A DNA stretch of 40,158 nucleotides from an uncultured Bacilli bacterium (GTDB lineage: Bacteria > Bacillota_I > Bacilli_A > RF39 > UBA660): NCBI GenBank assembly GCA_947630955.1, contig CANRJK010000002.1, forward strand, positions 1-40,158. The letters are read 5' to 3'. The notes beneath the pieces were generated by a model. It saw only the letters and a program-made list of their open reading frames with translations. It was not told where the DNA came from and ran no database searches. Positions within the stretch are counted from its first letter, which is position 1, and each line of letters opens with the position of its first letter. The translations under genes were made by a program, and so were the position numbers. Positions 1 to 38,521 of this stretch are shown here, one piece after another.

Positions 1-1344
1 GAATCCTATGCCCAAAGTTATATATCGTATGGAGCAAGATATAGATTATTTACAAATAAAACTCCAAGTTTAGAGTGCCTACAAGATAATGATAAGTTTA
101 CAGTAGCGAATAAAAAACTAACATATCCCGTAGGACTTATAACTGCAGATGAAGCTGCATATGCGGGAGGAGTATATGCTACTAGTAATGAAAATTATTA
201 TTTGTACACAGGTACTTTGCAATGGACAATGTCGCCATCTGGTGTTTTTGATAAAGTTAATATATGTACATGGTTAATAACATCATCTGGAAATTTTGAT
301 AATTATGGGGTTGAATATAATGGTACGGGTGTACGTCCAGTCATATCTTTAAAACAAGGAATCAAATATTTAAGTGGAAATGGAAGTAAAGAAACGCCTT
401 TTATAATAACGTCAATAACCAAGTCATTATATAATGTAATAACAACAAATTCAGTACTGGATAATATCGAGAGTGAACATGTAGAATCTGAAACAGGAAT
501 AGACTTTTCACAGATTTCATCCGATACGAATGGTAAAGGAATATATGAATTACATACAACCAAGAATGATGAATACCCAATATATTATTATAGGGGCGAA
601 GTAGATAATAATATCATATTTGCAAACTTCTGTTGGAAAATAATCAGAACAACAAGTAGTGGAGGAATAAAGATAATCTATAATGGAAGTCCAACAAGTG
701 ATAATAAATGTACAAACATTACAGGGCCAAACACTCAGATAGGAAGTTCACCATATAATGAAAAATATGATGAAGCAAAATATGTAGGATATAAATATGA
801 TAATGATGAAGTAGATAGTACCATAAAAACGAAAATAGAGTCATGGTATAAAACAAATATCGATGAAAAGAAAGATGCAAATGGAAAAAGCTATACAACG
901 TATATAGAAGATTTAGAATTCTGCAATGATAGAAGTATATCGTGGCAATCAGAAAGTACTATATATCATGGACCAAAATATAGAAATTATGACTATCGGA
1001 ACCCAAGTTTAGAGTGTTTACAGGGGGAAGATAAATTCACAGTAGCAAATAAAAAACTAACATATCCAGTAGGGCTTATAACAGCCGATGAGGTAGCGTA
1101 TGCTGGTGGAATATATGCTGAGGGCAATAATGCTTATTATTTATATACAGGTAATTATTATTGGACGATGTCGCCTTTCGATTTTCATGAAAATTATCCT
1201 TTTGTTTTTGATGTTCATGCAGCTGGTGGACTTAATGGTGATCGTGTTTATCTTAATAATGGCATACGCCCTGTTTTATCACTTAACTATAATATTGAAG
1301 TAATAGGTACTGGTACTTCTAATAATCCATATATGGTAAAATAA
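1..1344 (+). CDS. Secreted/surface multi-module protein, 3' portion (5' end outside window); DUF6273-like modules
   Basis: Frame 1 is open from nt 1 (ESYAQSYISYGARYRLF...), so the TTG at 202 in the ORF track is not the real start. It holds the tail of one module plus one full ~310-aa module with motifs FANFCWKIIRTT, FCNDRS, LTYPVGLITADEVAYAGG, YWTMSP and GIRPVLSL. It is paralogous to 1589..3586 and is followed by a terminator. Confidence 0.85.
   Translation, partial: ESYAQSYISYGARYRLFTNKTPSLECLQDNDKFTVANKKLTYPVGLITADEAAYAGGVYATSNENYYLYTGTLQWTMSPSGVFDKVNICTWLITSSGNFDNYGVEYNGTGVRPVISLKQGIKYLSGNGSKETPFIITSITKSLYNVITTNSVLDNIESEHVESETGIDFSQISSDTNGKGIYELHTTKNDEYPIYYYRGEVDNNIIFANFCWKIIRTTSSGGIKIIYNGSPTSDNKCTNITGPNTQIGSSPYNEKYDEAKYVGYKYDNDEVDSTIKTKIESWYKTNIDEKKDANGKSYTTYIEDLEFCNDRSISWQSESTIYHGPKYRNYDYRNPSLECLQGEDKFTVANKKLTYPVGLITADEVAYAGGIYAEGNNAYYLYTGNYYWTMSPFDFHENYPFVFDVHAAGGLNGDRVYLNNGIRPVLSLNYNIEVIGTGTSNNPYMVK
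424..1344 (+). repeat. Coding module copy (approximate bounds), closest DNA paralog of 2655..3586
   Basis: Long stretches align by eye with 2655..3586. For example, 652-718 versus 2894-2960 is 66/67 identical. Only the loop 1177-1260 versus 3416-3499 is unalignable. Confidence 0.8.
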
Positions 1345-1547: not shown

Positions 1548-1572
1548 GTCCTTAAGTATGATACTTAAGGAC
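1548..1572. promoter_or_regulatory. Perfect 25-bp palindrome GTCCTTAAGTAT-G-ATACTTAAGGAC just upstream of the RBS of the second surface-protein gene
   Basis: Read directly from the sequence. It ends 6 nt before the GGAGGG RBS (1579-1584). Candidate operator, 5'-UTR hairpin or recombination site. Confidence 0.65.
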
Positions 1573-1588: not shown

Positions 1589-3586
1589 ATGAAGCAAGTA
1601 AAAAATAAAAATATGTTAGTATTAGTAGTAATTGTTATAGTGACATTAACAAGTAGTATCGGATATAGTGCCTTACAGTCAAATTTGAAAATAACGGCTG
1701 ACTTAAGTGTCTTAAAAGACTACATACCAGATGGAACACTATATGATATGATGCATCATATATCGGAGATGGATAATACAAGTAGTAAGTATGTAAGTAG
1801 TCCTAGTGGGATAGATTTTAGTGAGGTATCATCGGATACGAACGGTAAAGGAGTATATGAATTATATACAACCAAAGATGAAAAATATCCTATTCATTAT
1901 TATAGAGGAGAAGTAGATAATAATGTAATATTTGCCAACTTCTGTTGGAAAATAGTAAGAACAACAGAGACTGGTGGTATAAGATTAATCTACAATGGTG
2001 AACCAAGTGGCGATGGTAAATGTGATAATAATGGTGACAAAACAGAAATAGGAACTTTAGCTTATAATGAAAATTCTGATGATGCTAAGTATGTAGGATA
2101 TAAATATGATAATGATACAGTTGACAGCACAGTAAAAGAATACATAGATAGTTGGTATGAAGAGAACATTGAAAATAAAAAGGATAGCAAAGGAGCAAGT
2201 TATAGTACATATTTAGATGATAGCTTTTTTTGTAATGATAGAAGTATATCCAGTAGGTCAGGAAACACTATCTACTATAGTTCATATACTAGAAATGCTG
2301 AAGACCACGCACCAAGTTTAGCATGTGCTGAAGAAGATAAGTTTACAATATCAAGTGGCAAATTAACTTATCCGGTAGGACTAATAACACTAGATGAGTT
2401 AGCATATGCGGGTGGTGAATATAATGATACAACAAGTAAATTTTACTTGAGAACAGGGCGTACTTATTGGACCATGTCGCCTTATTATTTTAATGGTGTT
2501 CATTCTTTTGTGGGATTAATTTCACCAGAAGGAATATTTCACAATCGAGTTGTTTATGATGAACGTGACGTTCGTCCAGTGGTATCCTTAAAACATGACA
2601 CAAAGTATTTAAGTGGTAATGGTACCAAGGATACTCCATTTTTGATAACACCAATAACTAGGTCATTATATAATGTAATAAAAACAAATTCTGTGTTGGA
2701 TAATGCTAAAAGTGAATATGTAGAATCCGAAACAGGAATCGATTTCAGTCAAATATCATCAGATACAAATGGCAAAGGAGTATATGAGTTACATACGACA
2801 GTAACTGATAAATACCCAATATATTATTATCGAGGAGCAGTAACAGATAACAATATAATATTTGCCAATTTTTGTTGGAAAATCATCAGAACGACAAGTA
2901 GTGGAGGAATAAAGATAATCTATACTGGAAGTCCAACAAGTGATAATAAATGTACAAACACTACAGATTCAAATACGCAAATAGGAACCTCTGCATATAA
3001 TAGTGATTATGATGAAGCAAAATATGTAGGATACAAATATGATAATGATGAAGTTGATAGTACGATAAAAACAAAAGTTGATAGTTGGTACAAAACAAAT
3101 ATCGATGAAAAGAAAGATGCAAGTGGAAAAAGTTATACGAATTATATAGAAGACTTAGAATTCTGTAATGATCGGAGTTCAAAAATGTCAGGAAGTAATT
3201 ACTTTTATGGTGCATTTGATAGAAATTATGGGCATAAAACCCCAAGTTTAATATGCCCACAAGATGAAGATAAATTTACCGTAGCAAATGAAAAACTAAC
3301 CTATCCCGTAGGACTTATAACAGTCGATGAGGTAGCATATGCCGGAGGAGTTCATGATACATCAAATAGTACATATTATTTATATACCAATCAATGGCAT
3401 TGGACCATGTCGCCTTCTTACTTCCAAGGCGGCGCTGAAGTGTGGGGCGTCTCTTCGGTTGGTGGCATCAACAACTACTACGTGAACAGCAACAACGGCG
3501 TTCGCCCAATCTTATCACTTATATCTACTACTCAAGTAATAGGAACCGGCACTAGTGACGACCCATATATCGTCGTTGAAAATTAA
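1589..3586 (+). CDS. Secreted/surface protein with an N-terminal signal-anchor and two tandem ~300-aa DUF6273-like modules
   Basis: Start refined to ATG 1589 (MKQVKNKNMLVLVVIVIV...), 4 nt after the GGAGGG RBS; the track start 1577 is a TTG inside the RBS. There are two modules (about 1730-2654 and 2655-3586), each with FANFCWKI(V/I)RTT, FCNDRS, LTYPVGLIT, YWTMSP and VRP(V/I)xSL. No LPXTG-type sorting signal at the C-terminus. Confidence 0.9.
   Translation: MKQVKNKNMLVLVVIVIVTLTSSIGYSALQSNLKITADLSVLKDYIPDGTLYDMMHHISEMDNTSSKYVSSPSGIDFSEVSSDTNGKGVYELYTTKDEKYPIHYYRGEVDNNVIFANFCWKIVRTTETGGIRLIYNGEPSGDGKCDNNGDKTEIGTLAYNENSDDAKYVGYKYDNDTVDSTVKEYIDSWYEENIENKKDSKGASYSTYLDDSFFCNDRSISSRSGNTIYYSSYTRNAEDHAPSLACAEEDKFTISSGKLTYPVGLITLDELAYAGGEYNDTTSKFYLRTGRTYWTMSPYYFNGVHSFVGLISPEGIFHNRVVYDERDVRPVVSLKHDTKYLSGNGTKDTPFLITPITRSLYNVIKTNSVLDNAKSEYVESETGIDFSQISSDTNGKGVYELHTTVTDKYPIYYYRGAVTDNNIIFANFCWKIIRTTSSGGIKIIYTGSPTSDNKCTNTTDSNTQIGTSAYNSDYDEAKYVGYKYDNDEVDSTIKTKVDSWYKTNIDEKKDASGKSYTNYIEDLEFCNDRSSKMSGSNYFYGAFDRNYGHKTPSLICPQDEDKFTVANEKLTYPVGLITVDEVAYAGGVHDTSNSTYYLYTNQWHWTMSPSYFQGGAEVWGVSSVGGINNYYVNSNNGVRPILSLISTTQVIGTGTSDDPYIVVEN
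2655..3586 (+). repeat. Coding module copy (approximate bounds), paralog of 424..1344
   Basis: See 424..1344. The 3' ~190 bp differ sharply in composition from the paralog. Confidence 0.8.
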
Positions 3587-3660
3587 AAAACAGGCAATAA
3601 AAAAAGAAGTATGCAAGATCATACCACTTTAATATTTATTTAAGAACTTATATGAAAAAT

Positions 3661-3864
3661 TTATATGTTCTTTTTTATTGTATTAGCTATCTTATCTTTT
3701 TCTTCATTAGAGCTATTTTGCCATAGTGTTTCAAAGAAGACACCTAAACCAGGTAGAGCCATTTCTTCTTTGTCATTCATTGATTGCTCAATAGCGTTTT
3801 TTATTTCATCTATATCACTATCTTTAAAATTACTTTTAATGCTATTTCTAATACTTATATTCAT
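3661..3864 (-). CDS. sspI: Small acid-soluble spore protein SspI
   Basis: The motif EMALPGLGVFFETLWQNSSNEEKDKI matches my recollection of B. subtilis SspI (KMLPGLGVLFEVIWQ...). Start refined to ATG at 3864 (MNISIRNS) with an AGGAG RBS 7 nt upstream; the track start 3882 is a TTG. Confidence 0.75.
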   Translation of the reverse strand: MNISIRNSIKSNFKDSDIDEIKNAIEQSMNDKEEMALPGLGVFFETLWQNSSNEEKDKIANTIKKNI

Positions 3865-3905
3865 TAAATCATCTCCTAACAATAGTATGTAAGATTTATT
3901 TAATT

Positions 3906-4181
3906 TTATAACATGTAGTAGTTAGAATCACTATATTTGTTATTGTAAGTTGTTGTGTTAGTTTTACTTTCTAATTTTGAAACTCTATTTTCTAAGCTGT
4001 TTATTTGTTGTTGCATGTTATTTATCTGTTGTTCTGTGTTGTTGTAAGCTTGCGTATAGCTTGCATTATATGGTGTATAGTTTTGGGGTGGCATCATAAT
4101 TGGAGTAGGCACTCCCATGATTGGCATTGAACCACTGAAATTAGAATACATTGGATTTCCACAATTTCGATCTTTTTTCAT
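3906..4181 (-). CDS. Hypothetical P/Y/N/Q-rich small protein with a C-terminal coiled-coil (possible spore coat-like protein)
   Basis: Strong RBS (AGGAGGTATTATG on the minus strand). Low-complexity N-terminus (PIMGVPTPIMMPPQNYTPYN) and a heptad-like segment QQINSLENRVSKLESK. Lies directly upstream of sspI on the same strand. Confidence 0.6.
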   Translation of the reverse strand: MKKDRNCGNPMYSNFSGSMPIMGVPTPIMMPPQNYTPYNASYTQAYNNTEQQINNMQQQINSLENRVSKLESKTNTTTYNNKYSDSNYYML

Positions 4182-8342: not shown

Positions 8343-8375
8343 TAAAAATATTGTATAATGTTAGTGAGGTGTCAT

Positions 8376-8858
8376 ATGAATAATTTAATTAATTTAATAA
8401 AGAAAAATAAGAAAAAATCAACAATTATAGGTGTAGGTTTAGTTGTTTTGATTATTTTTATTGTTATTTTATATTGTACAATATCTTATTTGATTCCTAA
8501 TAGCAAGAAAAGTGTTTATGGTGATCGTTGTGATATTACTGCAGAACATCCTGTGGATTCAAAAAGAAAGAGTTCTATTAAAAAATTCCTTGAAGATTAC
8601 AAAAATTATAATCTAAAAGAATTTGAAGTTAAGTGTAATTTGATTGATATCGTAATTGAAGTTGATGATAGTACTAACTTTTCAAACGTAAAGAAAATGG
8701 GTAAGAGTTTACTTTCTGTTTTTAGTAAAGATGAGGTTAAGTATTATGATATTCAGCTATTAATAAAATCAAAGAAAGATAATAGTGAATATTATCCACA
8801 AATAGGTACACATCACAAACAAATTAATGGTAGTTCAAACGATGATTTCGTTTGGTAG
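8376..8858 (+). CDS. Hypothetical single-pass membrane protein
   Basis: Start refined to ATG 8376 (MNNLINLIKK) after a GAGGTG RBS. TATAAT at 8354-8359. One TM (IIGVGLVVLIIFIVILYC). Confidence 0.65.
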   Translation: MNNLINLIKKNKKKSTIIGVGLVVLIIFIVILYCTISYLIPNSKKSVYGDRCDITAEHPVDSKRKSSIKKFLEDYKNYNLKEFEVKCNLIDIVIEVDDSTNFSNVKKMGKSLLSVFSKDEVKYYDIQLLIKSKKDNSEYYPQIGTHHKQINGSSNDDFVW

Positions 8859-26019: not shown

Positions 26020-26880
26020 TTAATAAAAAATAATGATAATTAAAACTGTCAATAAAGCATGAAAAAGTCTTGAAAATAAATAGGGTATATAGCGGATATT
26101 TAACTTATTTAAAATACCATATACTTGAAAATGAATACATATTCCTCCAAAGGATAAAAGAAATCCACTTATTAAAGTTTTAAGTTTTAAACTTAAATTT
26201 AACGTATTAAGATAATTTAGTCCTTGTGATAACTCTAAAATAACATTAAAAAAGGGGATATTAATTATTGATGAGATAATAAAAAAAGTTACAATTGTTC
26301 CTAAAATAAATAAAAGAGTTGATATAGCTGAATTGATTGAAGTTGTAAGAGCTTCTGCTAACTTAATATTTGGAGGATTAACTTCTTTTTGAACTTTCTG
26401 ACTGATATATTTATTTCGAATAATAATTCCAATAATAACATTACTGATATAATGCGCAAATAAAACTAATAATGTATGGTCTTTAATCATTCCCATGATA
26501 AATAAAGGATTAGAAAAATGGGAGAAAAGAATAATTTTTTGAACATCATTTATATCAATTAGATGCATATCATACATTTCCATCGCGATTTTAGCGTTAC
26601 TTGGAAATCCAGAAATAATACTCATAAAAAAGATATAAGATGTATTGTTATTTAATCTAAATAATTTTATGCATAATTTGCCAAAGAAAAAATTAACATA
26701 TTTAATGAAATTGAGATTTATTAACATTGATGATATAATGAACATAGGAAATAAAGATGGAAATATTTTGTTTAAAAATAAATCGCAAGCTTTAATGATA
26801 TTAACACTTACTAAAGGATAATTTTTAAATAGTGAAAATGTTAGTAGTAAAACAGCTAAAAGAGTTATTTTTTTAATCAT
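26020..26880 (-). CDS. YlbJ-like sporulation integral membrane protein (nucleoside-recognition/Gate domain)
   Basis: Polytopic membrane protein. The N-terminal motif ACDLFLNKIFPSLFPMFIISSML matches the YlbJ-type opening. Shorter (286 aa) than B. subtilis YlbJ as I recall it. Lies near a ylbL-like gene. Confidence 0.55.
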   Translation of the reverse strand: MIKKITLLAVLLLTFSLFKNYPLVSVNIIKACDLFLNKIFPSLFPMFIISSMLINLNFIKYVNFFFGKLCIKLFRLNNNTSYIFFMSIISGFPSNAKIAMEMYDMHLIDINDVQKIILFSHFSNPLFIMGMIKDHTLLVLFAHYISNVIIGIIIRNKYISQKVQKEVNPPNIKLAEALTTSINSAISTLLFILGTIVTFFIISSIINIPFFNVILELSQGLNYLNTLNLSLKLKTLISGFLLSFGGICIHFQVYGILNKLNIRYIPYLFSRLFHALLTVLIIIIFY

Positions 26881-26969: not shown

Positions 26970-28070
26970 ATGCTAGAGTTAAATAGAAAAGCATTAAAAA
27001 AAGTTTTTAGTGGTAAATTTAAATTAACTAATTTTGTTAAAAGAAGAGCTTCTAAAATAATTTTAACTTCAGCCGTTGCCTTAACAATGTTAACCGGTTG
27101 TGGTGATAAGAAGAGTACGGAAACTAATGAACCACCAAAAGAGCCAAAAGTAAAAACAGAAAGTAGTACTCCAGACGAAAAAGAAGTTAAAGAAACTAAG
27201 AAAGATTTAGAAAAAGAAAAAAAGACTATTGCTTTCTTATCTGATTCTTTAAAAATATCTGATTTAAAAGTTAAAAATGGATTAGATACGGCTAAAGAGG
27301 CTGCTAATATCGATGTTGCTGGTATTGCTATGGCTGTTGATGAACAAGGTAATATTATTAGTGATAAAGCATCTGGTAGTGAAATTTTAGTTTCTGAGGT
27401 CTATGATAGAGATGTTCATGTAGCTAGCGATGGCGATTTATATGTTAATAGTCCATCCGCACCAGATGAAATATCAGATGAATTAGATGGTAAATACCTT
27501 GCTCCAGATGGTTCATATTGGGAATCAGAACAAGATTATTTAAATCAAATAAATGGTGATGAGGTTGTCACTGTAGAAGGTACTGGTACTACCGAAGATG
27601 TTATTGTTGCTGAAGGAGATAGTTACCGAGCTCCAGATGGTTCATATTGGGAATCAAAGCAAGAATATGATGAATGGGCAAGATATAATAGTGACGTTGC
27701 AACAAACGATAGTTTAGTTGATGGTGAAGCTAATTATTATACAGCTCCAGACGGAAGTATTTGGGAGAGTGAACAAACTTATAACGAATATATTGGTAGT
27801 GTTAATGAACAAACACCAGAATCTGATAATAATTATTCTCAAGATGAAAACTATGGTTATGAAGCTCCAGATGGCAGTATTTGGGAAAGTGAACAATCTT
27901 ACAATGAATATATAAATGGTATTGATGAACAAGTAACAGAATCTGATAGTAACTATGATGAAAGTGTTCAAGATGACAATAATTACTATACAGCTCCAGA
28001 TGGAAGCTTATGGGCCAGTGAATCAGACTATAATGATAGTTTAAGTGGTGAAGCTAGTTATACAAGATAG
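26970..28070 (+). CDS. Acidic lipoprotein with five APDGSxWESEQxY repeats
   Basis: Strong RBS AAGGAAGGGGG. Lipobox LTMLTGCG. The C-terminal half carries Y(L/R/T/E)APDGS(Y/I/L)W(E/A)SE(Q/S)xY five times. Confidence 0.8.
   Translation: MLELNRKALKKVFSGKFKLTNFVKRRASKIILTSAVALTMLTGCGDKKSTETNEPPKEPKVKTESSTPDEKEVKETKKDLEKEKKTIAFLSDSLKISDLKVKNGLDTAKEAANIDVAGIAMAVDEQGNIISDKASGSEILVSEVYDRDVHVASDGDLYVNSPSAPDEISDELDGKYLAPDGSYWESEQDYLNQINGDEVVTVEGTGTTEDVIVAEGDSYRAPDGSYWESKQEYDEWARYNSDVATNDSLVDGEANYYTAPDGSIWESEQTYNEYIGSVNEQTPESDNNYSQDENYGYEAPDGSIWESEQSYNEYINGIDEQVTESDSNYDESVQDDNNYYTAPDGSLWASESDYNDSLSGEASYTR
27495..28040 (+). repeat. Five in-frame tandem-like repeats with a 114-129 bp period
   Basis: GCTCCAGA(T/C)GG begins at 27501, 27630, 27744, 27864 and 27993. 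Units 3 and 4 (about 27740-27835 and 27860-27955) are alignable along their whole length. Confidence 0.8.
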
Positions 28071-36358: not shown

Positions 36359-38521
36359 ATGAAACAAGATAAAACAACCAAATTAGTTGATATAATGCAT
36401 TACTATCAGTTTAATAAACTTGATATCTCTACTTTAACGGATGAACAAATAAAATATTTAATTACCGAACGAAAAAAGCAAATTTTTGATGCCGTTTCGA
36501 ACTTTATTAATGGCAAAACAAATTTTAATTTATTTTTAGATTCTCTATCCGAAGAAAATCTTTATCTTTTTTTAAGTTACGATACAATTGAAGCAATTAA
36601 AACATCCAAAAAAAGAGATATAATCATTAAAGCAATTGTTTTTTCACACAATAAATATTTAATTGAAGTTCTAAAAGAATCTCTTTTTTTAGACTATATT
36701 ATTCAAAATTTTGACTATTTAAGCGCTATAATTGAAAATATGCCTAATGAAATAGCTATAACAATCTTTGATAGTATCTTAAAAAAATATCCTCGTAAAA
36801 TTAAAGCTATCATCCAATTTAATGCTGTTAACCAATCGGCTATCATTGAACATATTGGACTAGATAAATTTTACTTAATTACCAAAAAAGAACAACTATT
36901 AATCTATTTAGCTGATGATGTAATATCTAATTTAATCATGTTAAAGCCTTTTTGTGATTTATTTTTACAACTTCCAACCGAACAAATAATTGAAGTTTTA
37001 GAAAGAATTATTGTTCCTAATTCTTTCAGTTATAATAAAGAATTTATTAGAAAAATTGCGACCTTAAAAGACCCTAACCAATATCGTTTTTTGGTTGATA
37101 CAATAATGGATCGTTCCTATAACAATATTAGAAGAGTAAAAACTAGAAAGTTAAAAAATATGAACGATTATTTCGTACATAAAAAAATGAAAGAAGATCT
37201 TTTAATTACAAAGCAACATTTAAGAATAAATGATATTGTTTTATCTAATAAATCCAAATATCGTTTCGATCCTTTCCCACTAGAAGAAGCTAGAGAAAAA
37301 TATTATGATTACCAAGTTGAACAGATAAAGGCTTGTGATGGCCTTTTAGCTGAATATTATGACTTTTATTGTAATCCAAGATATAATCATAGTATTTTTA
37401 ATGAAAAAAATATCTTTTGGCGAACAAAAATTAATGATTGGTTAAAGAGTAATGAAGATAAAAGTTTTTTATATGAAATATTAAGTCTAATGACAACAAA
37501 AAAACTTTTTGAAATTTTAATTGACCGCTATTATAAAGATGTTGCTTATAATTTCCTTCTTAACTTACAAAAAATGGTTACTTTTTTTGATAGTATAGAT
37601 ATAGATAAAATAGAAAATATCAGTCTTGAATTTAAAGAAAGATTAAAAAAATATAAACTTATTTTGAAATTTGATTATTTAACTAGAGATGAACAAATTG
37701 CTTTTTATAATAGTTTTGATAAAAAAACAAGTTATAGTGCTATTTTCTATGACGACTATAATTTAGCTAAAAGAATGTTTTATGAAAATATGAATAATTC
37801 TGTTTTCCATCCAAATCAGAAATCTTCATTATTAATAGATGAAAATACTAGTAATAATGAGGTTAAAATCTATGAATTAAAAGGAGAGCCATTTTATACT
37901 TATACACATATAACACCGATTAAAAGAAGAGAAGCTCATAAAACATCTGAATTATGGAATAATTATATTTTTGATTATTTAACAAACCCGCTAGGTGCAT
38001 CTGAAAAAAAATTAACTACGCATATAACTTTTGCTAGTAGTTATAAATTAGAATCATTTAAACTAATTAAAGAATTCGTTACTTTTGGTTTTTATGATTT
38101 AGATATAAAAAGAATTATTAGAACTTTTAGTTGTTCTTCTAGTTATCCATCTGACTGTTATGGATTAGGTATAGATAAAGTTAATGAAATATTACCAACC
38201 TTAGATAAAAATAATTTAATGAAAGATTATAATGGTATAATTTATCAAAACGTATCTAGTATTATCTTAGATGATGTTATTTTACAAAAATATCGTGATT
38301 TTAAACCAGACTTTTTATATTGTTATGATAAAGTAACAATGTGGGATATTAATATCGCTAAAAGAATGGGAATTGATATTTTAGTTGTTTATACTGATAA
38401 TTATCTTTGTCAAATAGGAAATTATAGTCATTATGATTTCGATGATGAATATATGATGAGATTAAGTCAAACACAAAAAATATGTACATATCAAAAAAAG
38501 AAAATAGATAGTGGGTGTTAA
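36359..38521 (+). CDS. Large (720 aa) hypothetical cytoplasmic protein with no recognisable domain
   Basis: Uninterrupted 2.16-kb ORF with its own promoter-like element and a GGTGGGG RBS. No TM or signal peptide. Helical-repeat-like N-terminal half. I recognise no catalytic motif. Confidence 0.8.
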   Translation: MKQDKTTKLVDIMHYYQFNKLDISTLTDEQIKYLITERKKQIFDAVSNFINGKTNFNLFLDSLSEENLYLFLSYDTIEAIKTSKKRDIIIKAIVFSHNKYLIEVLKESLFLDYIIQNFDYLSAIIENMPNEIAITIFDSILKKYPRKIKAIIQFNAVNQSAIIEHIGLDKFYLITKKEQLLIYLADDVISNLIMLKPFCDLFLQLPTEQIIEVLERIIVPNSFSYNKEFIRKIATLKDPNQYRFLVDTIMDRSYNNIRRVKTRKLKNMNDYFVHKKMKEDLLITKQHLRINDIVLSNKSKYRFDPFPLEEAREKYYDYQVEQIKACDGLLAEYYDFYCNPRYNHSIFNEKNIFWRTKINDWLKSNEDKSFLYEILSLMTTKKLFEILIDRYYKDVAYNFLLNLQKMVTFFDSIDIDKIENISLEFKERLKKYKLILKFDYLTRDEQIAFYNSFDKKTSYSAIFYDDYNLAKRMFYENMNNSVFHPNQKSSLLIDENTSNNEVKIYELKGEPFYTYTHITPIKRREAHKTSELWNNYIFDYLTNPLGASEKKLTTHITFASSYKLESFKLIKEFVTFGFYDLDIKRIIRTFSCSSSYPSDCYGLGIDKVNEILPTLDKNNLMKDYNGIIYQNVSSIILDDVILQKYRDFKPDFLYCYDKVTMWDINIAKRMGIDILVVYTDNYLCQIGNYSHYDFDDEYMMRLSQTQKICTYQKKKIDSGC

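Follow-up and report, generated by a model that had tools for sequence, protein, structure and literature searches.

The window analysed here, the whole 40,158 bases of contig CANRJK010000002.1 from an uncultured Bacilli bacterium, carries a gene for a predicted surface protein (bases 1589-3586) whose 3′ end holds a short GC-rich island. The island (about 3416-3508) was interpreted as the variable region (VR) of a chromosomal target gene of a diversity-generating retroelement (DGR), such an element having written the island, with a probability of about 0.8. Most likely it is a remote DGR target, active or recently active. The features on which this interpretation depends are as follows.

1589..3586, + strand: target gene, 665 amino acids, with an N-terminal hydrophobic signal/anchor segment followed by two modules of ~320 amino acids (from the open reading frame list and translation)
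2621..3583, + strand: second module, DUF6273-like, predicted C-type-lectin-like domain
3401..3415, + strand: conserved 5′ flank TGG ACC ATG TCG CCT (WTMSP), common to the paralogous modules (self-blastn matches at 2466-2490, 1160-1177 and 219-240)
~3416..3508, + strand: candidate VR, from codon-by-codon alignment with 7707-7850 of L001, the locus of the closest relative
3470..3496, + strand: AAC/TAC/AGC run encoding NNYYVNSNN, with A at 7 of 9 variable sites
3497..3508, + strand: GC-rich 3′ boundary GGC GTT CGC CCA (G-V-R-P), in the position of the initiation of mutagenic homing (IMH) site

In the proposed mechanism, the target gene would encode a secreted or surface protein of two DUF6273 (C-type-lectin-like) modules, and the DNA of the last β-hairpin loops of the second module would be copied from the RNA of a template repeat (TR) by an error-prone reverse transcriptase (RT) that randomises template adenines only. 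Constant residues would be encoded without adenine (GGC, GCT, GTG, TGG, GTC, TCG, GGT, CGC). Diversified residues would derive from AAC-type codons in which the first two bases may become any base and the C is kept, yielding NNC codons and no stops. This combination of adenine-free constant residues and randomised AAC adenines is the working principle of DGRs (summarised in PMC5758913), and would explain a GC-rich, NNC-biased island in a 27% G+C genome. The TR/RT/Avd cassette would act from a remote genomic site, since it is absent from the contig and was never found within 10 kb of the target in relatives. What the data show is the compositional anomaly, the structural position, the adenine-specific footprint and, in relatives, hypervariation confined to the loop. 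The existence, location and present activity of a cassette in this genome are inferred, and the odds that it is still present and active here are roughly even.

The island is a sharp compositional outlier. The mean G+C content of the contig is 27.6%, and bases 3401-3500 reach 56% against a G+C fraction of 0.25-0.42 in the neighbouring 100-nt windows. Among 90-nt windows across the contig (mean 0.276, sd 0.060), the highest value, 0.567, belongs to the one beginning at 3411 (z ~4.9), and those at or above 48% G+C form a single cluster in the 40,158 bases, at 3375-3444. Codon usage shifts with composition. All asparagine and tyrosine codons of the island end in C (5 AAC and 3 TAC, with 0 AAT and 0 TAT), whereas in the rest of the two paralogous genes 22 end in C and 160 in T (Fisher p = 1.6e-7). 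Taking all codons together, 19 of 31 end in C in the island compared with 97 of 1057 in the rest of the two genes (p = 4e-12). The hand counts of an earlier first-pass annotation, made from the sequence, were exact for the asparagine and tyrosine codons, for the 19 of 31 codons and for the 51 G/C in 3421-3510. The sliding-window and codon-usage scan that it had suggested identified the island as unique in the 40 kb. Its statement that codons such as AAT, TAT, GGT and GGA prevail elsewhere in the gene and in the paralogous loops agrees with the ratio of 22 to 160 and with the composition of the three other loops in the window (238-327, 1177-1260 and 2483-2566), which are 28-31% G+C. It had also reported a second patch of about 55% G+C; G+C content is indeed raised there, but only to 47%, and the patch lies outside the variable region. 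The remaining segments concerned are as follows.

1..1344, + strand: upstream tandem paralogue, truncated by the contig start, both loops (238-327, 1177-1260) 28-31% G+C, no Pfam match
2483..2566, + strand: module 1 loop of the target gene, non-canonical, 30% G+C, without the A-x-V-W-x-V-xxx-G scaffold and without a DGR footprint
3541..3583, + strand: second GC-rich patch, weaker at 47% G+C, which encodes the conserved C-terminal motif GTGTSDDPYIVVE (GTGTSDDPY)

The patch at 3541-3583 was considered as part of the VR and rejected. It contains adenines, is ~72% identical to L001 as is ordinary flanking sequence, and forms no stable hairpin.

Within the candidate VR, adenine-free scaffold codons (GGC, GCT, GTG TGG, GTC, TCG, GGT, GTG, GGC GTT CGC CC) alternate with variable codons, and the island ends 78 nt before the stop codon of the target gene. 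The variable codons fit an AAC-type design that gives stop-free NNC codons. The run encoding NNYYVNSNN is the part of the island nearest to the presumed AAC-run template.

Comparison with the closest relative supported an adenine-directed origin of the variation. The relative, protein P0002 at locus L001, is 71% identical to the target protein and comes from a metagenome-assembled genome (MAG) of a rabbit-gut 'uncultured Bacilli bacterium'; the protein cluster of the window has a single member. At the corresponding loop, L001 has an island of 63% G+C, the only one in 18 kb. The DNA of the two loci is 80-95% identical in the flanks and only 63% identical in the loop. The loops align codon for codon, with scaffold codons identical including silent sites and variable codons differing at positions 1-2 and retaining the third-position C. 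The differing sites span 3425-3495, and variation ends at GGC GTT CGC CCA. Mismatches fell in 19 of 26 loop columns containing A (73%) and in 5 of 67 columns free of A (7%), an odds ratio of 34, compared with 3.1 for the same ratio in the flanks. Thus one copy carries A at 19 of the 24 loop mismatches. Conversely, A makes up 10% of the identical loop columns and 42% of those in the flanks (p = 6e-9). Comparing one VR with another in this way points, indirectly, to adenine-specific substitution in the loop.

The same pattern recurs beyond the species of the window. Homologues of the target protein number 4529 (E<=1e-5), mainly from gut Bacilli metagenome assemblies, and GC islands at the corresponding loop were found in three other low-GC gut species. 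In one human-gut species of 27.5% G+C, one locus is represented by two alleles, P0018 and P0019. Each allele has two loops, all of them at 54-58% G+C, and no other stretch of the 22 kb lies beyond 3 sd in G+C. When three human-gut loops were aligned, the 62 invariant columns held 0 adenines compared with 37% in the flanks (p = 4e-13), and A occurred once or more in 59% of the variable columns, in line with randomisation of those sites. In a third human-gut species, the proteins P0144 and P0135 have 15 differences among the 30 loop residues and 2 in the remainder. The corresponding DNA, at loci L020 and L013, carries 20 mismatches in the 82-nt loop block and 3 in the ~1,400 nt of the gene that lie outside it (Fisher p = 9e-24). 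All 20 lie at codon positions 1-2 and none at position 3, variation ends at GGC GTT CGG CCT, the equivalent of the boundary in the window, and A makes up 9.6% of the identical loop columns against 40% gene-wide. Clusters at >=90% identity (3, 4 and 6) hold proteins with very different loops on a fixed scaffold, the density of variable columns being 0.28-0.62 in the loop and 0.01-0.16 elsewhere. Lysine, glutamate, glutamine, methionine and tryptophan (K, E, Q, M, W) are the residues that NNC codons cannot encode. Among 11 canonical loops of the window subfamily, these residues occupy 3 of 258 non-anchor positions compared with a background of 16.8% (p = 6e-17).

These data bear on two explanations that dispense with a DGR. 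The first-pass annotation had offered, as its alternative, a recombination patch, in which horizontal transfer from an organism of higher G+C exchanged the loop for a short stretch of a homologous gene. The abrupt jump in composition over ~100 nt is what such an event would leave. The island, however, occurs at the matching loop in four low-GC species whose scaffold sequences all differ, which disfavours a donor patch. Nor would a transferred patch leave invariant columns free of adenine or keep differences within codon positions 1-2. The searches found no contiguous homologue of higher G+C: the rabbit MAG was the sole match in a scan of 185,579 species genomes, and neither phages nor plasmids gave a relevant blastn match. 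This origin is accordingly most improbable. The second explanation does without reverse transcription and invokes gene conversion between paralogous loops, which may be GC-biased, or else selection acting on codons or on the structure of the DNA. The target-gene family has many copies, with paralogues in tandem and two modules to a gene, and the loop lengths of the paralogues differ, which a single template leaves unexplained. Gene conversion, however, homogenises copies and would not make alleles diverge at 20 of 82 nt with every change at codon position 1 or 2. It gives no account of the adenine-free invariant columns or of the exclusion of K, E, Q, M and W, and no donor copy was present in the loci scanned. 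We regard it as very unlikely.

The position of the island in the predicted protein is that of a DGR variable region. Pfam DUF6273 (PF19789) matched residues 596-644 of the protein with 29.2 bits (cut-off 23.5). The match is confined to the C-terminal end of the profile (positions 126-170 of 172), and within the protein only the second-module loop is matched. DUF6273 is described as a C-type-lectin-like DGR target domain with the VR at its C-terminus (PMC10743442, PMC11792537, bioRxiv 10.1101/2024.10.15.618418). An AlphaFold2 model of the last module was of high confidence (mean predicted local distance difference test score, pLDDT, 94.6; predicted template modelling score, pTM, 0.92) and placed the variable loop in β-hairpins at module residues 266-292 (pLDDT 97-98). 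The structure prediction and fold comparison had been proposed in the first-pass annotation. The best Foldseek matches of the model were gut-phage DUF6273 proteins (E 8e-6 to 1e-4, 250-317 aligned columns, query TM score 0.35-0.40). PDB 9qa6, an IgA peptidase of Thomasclavelia ramosa whose N-terminal domain is DUF6273 (PMC12402451), also matched (E 1.2e-4). Solved C-type lectins matched weakly (Legionella Lcl C-terminal domain, E 2.6; CD23 and CD94/NKG2A, E 6-9); that DUF6273 is lectin-like is a statement of the literature and does not rest on these matches. The candidate VR thus lies at the 3′ end of the target gene, within a DUF6273 domain that is putatively C-type-lectin-like. The proposal of a candidate DGR variable region, advanced in the first-pass annotation on composition and codon usage, has therefore gained the C-terminal position in DUF6273, the adenine-free scaffold, the NNC repertoire and the loop-restricted hypervariation in relatives, and the call is an inferential one.

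The N-termini of the target protein (window 1589-1700) and of relatives (P0017-P0019, L012, L013) resemble camelysin/TasA-type signal peptides (e.g. GKETYALFTNE, GGTLAAFTAS), and several relatives of the target protein match Pfam Peptidase_M73. The family may be secreted via a SipW-type signal peptidase, and could be fibre-forming.

Writing A at the 20 sites that differ between L013 and L020 predicts an AAC-rich template: ATC TAC TTC AAT GGT AGT ATT GCG AGC GTG TTC AAC GTG AAC TCG ACT GGC AAC CTC AAC AAC AAC AAC GTC AAC AAC ACG AAC GGC GTT CGG. A 27-nt piece of the predicted cluster-4 template matched five IMG/VR contigs (L021-L025). These contigs are genuine DGR cassettes, comprising a target with a 3′ VR, a small open reading frame, a TR and an RVT_1 reverse transcriptase (E = 6e-10), with differences from TR to VR solely at template adenines (A-to-N). 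Their templates share with the predicted template an identical 35-nt core (GGC AAC CTC AAC AAC AAC AAC GTC AAC AAC ACG AA), and the layout of the window island, G-x-[IL]-N-N-x-x-V-N-x-x-N, matches the encoded core G-N-L-N-N-N-N-V-N-N-T-N. The cassettes are not cognate to the predicted template, from which their flanks differ. They also differ from the window in lying on viral contigs of 52-60% G+C and in a template that ends N-R-C-Q-A where the window loop ends G-V-R-P. Complete cassettes lie at 5692-9041 of L022, 4514-5305 of L025 and 3833-4664 of L021. The template of these three encodes A-W-I-F-N-G-N-N-G-N-L-N-N-N-N-V-N-N-T-N-R-C-Q-A, and neither the 439-amino-acid target nor the 183-amino-acid open reading frame in the Avd position has a Pfam match.

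Several results weigh against the DGR interpretation, among them the failure to find a template or a cassette. Of the source genome, the searches for TR, RT and Avd covered this contig. Self-blastn and a scaffold scan of the 40 kb found no TR-like copy, and Pfam found no RVT_1 or Avd-like family among the 30 open reading frames, in agreement with the first-pass annotation, which had seen no RT, avd or template copy. Its suggestion that the element might lie upstream of nt 1 could not be followed, as the window is the entire contig and there is no 5′ sequence to search. In four species, precomputed Pfam assignments within ±10 kb of the relatives showed housekeeping neighbourhoods throughout, without a cassette or RVT_1. 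A-rich scaffold matches in the window and 20 related loci, on both strands, were the loops themselves, with no donor copy.

Wider searches gave the same outcome. A window-type scaffold pattern, with N at variable sites, matched nothing in viral contigs (IMG/VR) or metagenomes (JGI), the viral and metagenome collections used throughout. In the 185,579 species genomes it found only P0002's own loop in the rabbit MAG and no template; that MAG is a species representative, and a template with the shared scaffold should have matched. A degenerate window pattern (each VR base or A) had 0 matches in the species-genome contigs, a collection without the source genome. The human-gut-type pattern had 0 matches in viral contigs and found one further loop allele in metagenomes (L012), the cluster-4-type pattern had 0 matches in viral contigs, and so had the exact window-type and human-gut-type template strings. 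Neither the island nor the predicted template had a relevant blastn match in GenBank phages or PLSDB plasmids. A protein-based search of IMG/VR for members of the target family returned none.

Other points on the same side concern the loops themselves. No protein homology was detected between the window module and the confirmed DGR target in L022, and the identity of the 35-nt core could therefore be convergent. DNA comparison within the window's own scaffold type involved only two sequences, and these loops differ by two codon indels, so that one and the same template cannot have served both genomes; indels opposite AAC have been described for DGRs (PMC5758913). Loop lengths also differ among paralogues. 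Alleles of relatives reappear unchanged in 8-18 contigs of separate samples, and diversification would thus be at most occasional. Finally, no GC-rich inverted repeat (hairpin or cruciform) was found downstream of the IMH position in 3380-3680, and DNA folds of the 3′ stretches from four species (z-scores -0.4 to +2.8) revealed no conserved hairpin after the loop. Such a repeat is present in only 34% of surveyed DGRs (PMC5758913) and is thus not required. The IMH proper is defined against the IMH* of the template, and 3497-3508 was placed by position only.

The missing cassette would also be explained if the island were a relic, written by an ancestral DGR that has since been lost, and were now decaying slowly towards an AT-rich composition. 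This is possible but doubtful. Neither a TR nor an RT is on the contig and none matching the shared scaffold is in the MAG contigs of the nearest relative, the three other loops of the window are low in G+C, and phages that keep DUF6273 targets after loss of the DGR have been noted (bioRxiv 10.1101/2024.10.15.618418). A decay-like state is seen in the module 1 loop of P0002 (L001 6789-6899), which shares the scaffold at 43% G+C and has codons drifted from GTG to GTA and from TCG to TCT. Judged by its sequence, it looks like a VR that is no longer rewritten, and loop G+C content could thus serve as a rough clock of the time since the last rewriting. The scaffold codons of the window, by comparison, are still adenine-free and identical to those of the relative at silent sites, with the flanking module carrying 10-26% mismatches per column class. 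Any loss of the cassette would therefore be recent. Moreover, in a related species the loop turns over far faster than the rest of the gene diverges, and MAGs often miss mobile or atypical contigs.

A further variant is that chromosomal loops are rewritten in trans by a DGR that has no stable place in the chromosome of the host and might be carried, for example, by a phage, a prophage or a plasmid. The absence of a cassette within 10 kb in four species and of a template match in the rabbit MAG would fit, as would the persistence of exact alleles across many hosts with occasional wholesale replacement of the loop. We consider it unlikely; if true, it would contradict the expectation of Wu et al. 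2018 that phage-borne DGRs serve no remote cellular targets.

A resident but distant cassette, as the DGR interpretation proposes, has precedents. Non-adjacent targets were documented for 45 of 372 DGRs, 73 such targets in all, 29 of them >100 kb away (Wu et al. 2018, PMC5758913), and the DGR target of Toutatisvirus lies 17.5 kb from its template (bioRxiv 10.1101/2024.10.15.618418).

The target gene is chromosomal and lies amid housekeeping genes. The remaining genes of the contig include sspI, trmB-like, camS, recX, mraZ/mraW, a penicillin-binding protein gene, a sortase gene, comEC, dnaG, sigA, mutS, gyrB and gyrA. Neither the Rfam nor the tRNA scan of the window gave a match. Upstream of the target gene the following element was annotated.

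1578-1583: ribosome-binding site GGAGGG of the target gene

A perfect 19-nt palindrome, CTTAAGTATGATACTTAAG, adjoins this site (window 1548-1572), and a near-copy lies ~155 nt upstream (1394-1412), directly after the terminator of the upstream paralogue; 4 strand-matches were found against 0.03 expected. L001 has a matching layout (at about 5725 and 5890) with the outer arms conserved and the centre different. The pair could be an operator pair, a hairpin of the 5′ untranslated region or the inverted repeats of an invertible promoter segment.

Downstream, an 11-nt inverted repeat (3642-3672; 91% complementary, 9 nt between the arms, A/T runs on both sides) sits between the convergent target gene and sspI and is probably a bidirectional terminator. 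A hairpin followed by a T-run at ~1345-1380, 3′ of the upstream paralogue, resembles it. The sspI gene (3661-3882, - strand) encodes a small acid-soluble spore protein (Pfam E = 3e-20; TIGR03092 above cut-off), and together with SpoVG, YabP and GerQ in L001 it points to a spore-forming, very low-GC member of the Bacilli. Beside sspI, 3906-4181 (- strand) encodes a 91-amino-acid Q/N-rich coiled-coil protein with no assigned function. Four sizeable open reading frames have no Pfam family above threshold: 36359-38521 (+), 26020-26880 (-), 26970-28070 (+) and 8358-8858 (+); the largest encodes a 720-amino-acid protein downstream of gyrA. In one human-gut species, samples differ in whether a serine recombinase (Resolvase/Recombinase) gene, itself variable in length, lies 5-8 kb upstream of the target gene (present at L013 3134-5075, L014 1535-2974 and L015 1634-2980, compared with L016); this is a polymorphic mobile-element insertion near the locus.

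Taken together, the 4529 homologues form a large family, in low-GC gut Bacilli, of predicted secreted proteins with two DUF6273 modules that bear an adenine-specific footprint with no cassette in view. The footprint marks them as ligand-binding surface molecules under diversifying pressure in bacteria of the rabbit and human gut. Because surveys of DGRs set out from the RT and examine its vicinity, they leave distant targets uncounted, and those made on metagenomes cannot see them (Roux et al. 2021). Where a genome is AT-rich, the VR by itself reveals the footprint, as a sharp GC island with an adenine-free scaffold and NNC codons, and this signature allows detection of remote or orphan DGR targets independently of the cassette.

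Three known systems are comparable. The DUF6273 targets of gut-phage DGRs include tentaclins and Mtd-like proteins, in the Faecalibacterium prophages Lelie, CP11, Roos and Pioen and in Toutatisvirus. They are structural components of phages whose own genome carries the cassette, whereas the window gene is chromosomal, has two tandem modules, has no cassette within reach and belongs to a family with no member in IMG/VR. Shared with them are the Pfam domain with a C-terminal VR, the fold detected by Foldseek and the AAC-based codons. In Treponema denticola, one distant cassette serves TvpA and seven scattered paralogues, the TR and RT are known, and VR-TR differences are A-to-N only (PMC5758913). 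For the window gene no TR was found, and the loop lengths of its paralogues differ; both systems involve chromosomal surface-protein paralogues with C-terminal VRs in a lectin-type fold, predicted in the case of the window gene. Bordetella phage BPP-1 (Mtd/Brt/Avd), the reference DGR, has an adjacent cassette and a GC-rich inverted repeat after the IMH, a repeat not seen here and also missing from 66% of surveyed DGRs (PMC5758913). The candidate VR resembles that of BPP-1 in the footprint of adenine-specific mutagenesis, in its AAC codons, in the invariant scaffold that presents the variable residues and in a GC-rich 3′ boundary, a likeness of features with no claim of sequence homology to Mtd. 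Set beside these systems, the biology is of a known type, its defining template was not found in the searches made, and the call of a DGR variable region is sound; what is useful is the signature by which DGR targets can be detected from the VR alone.

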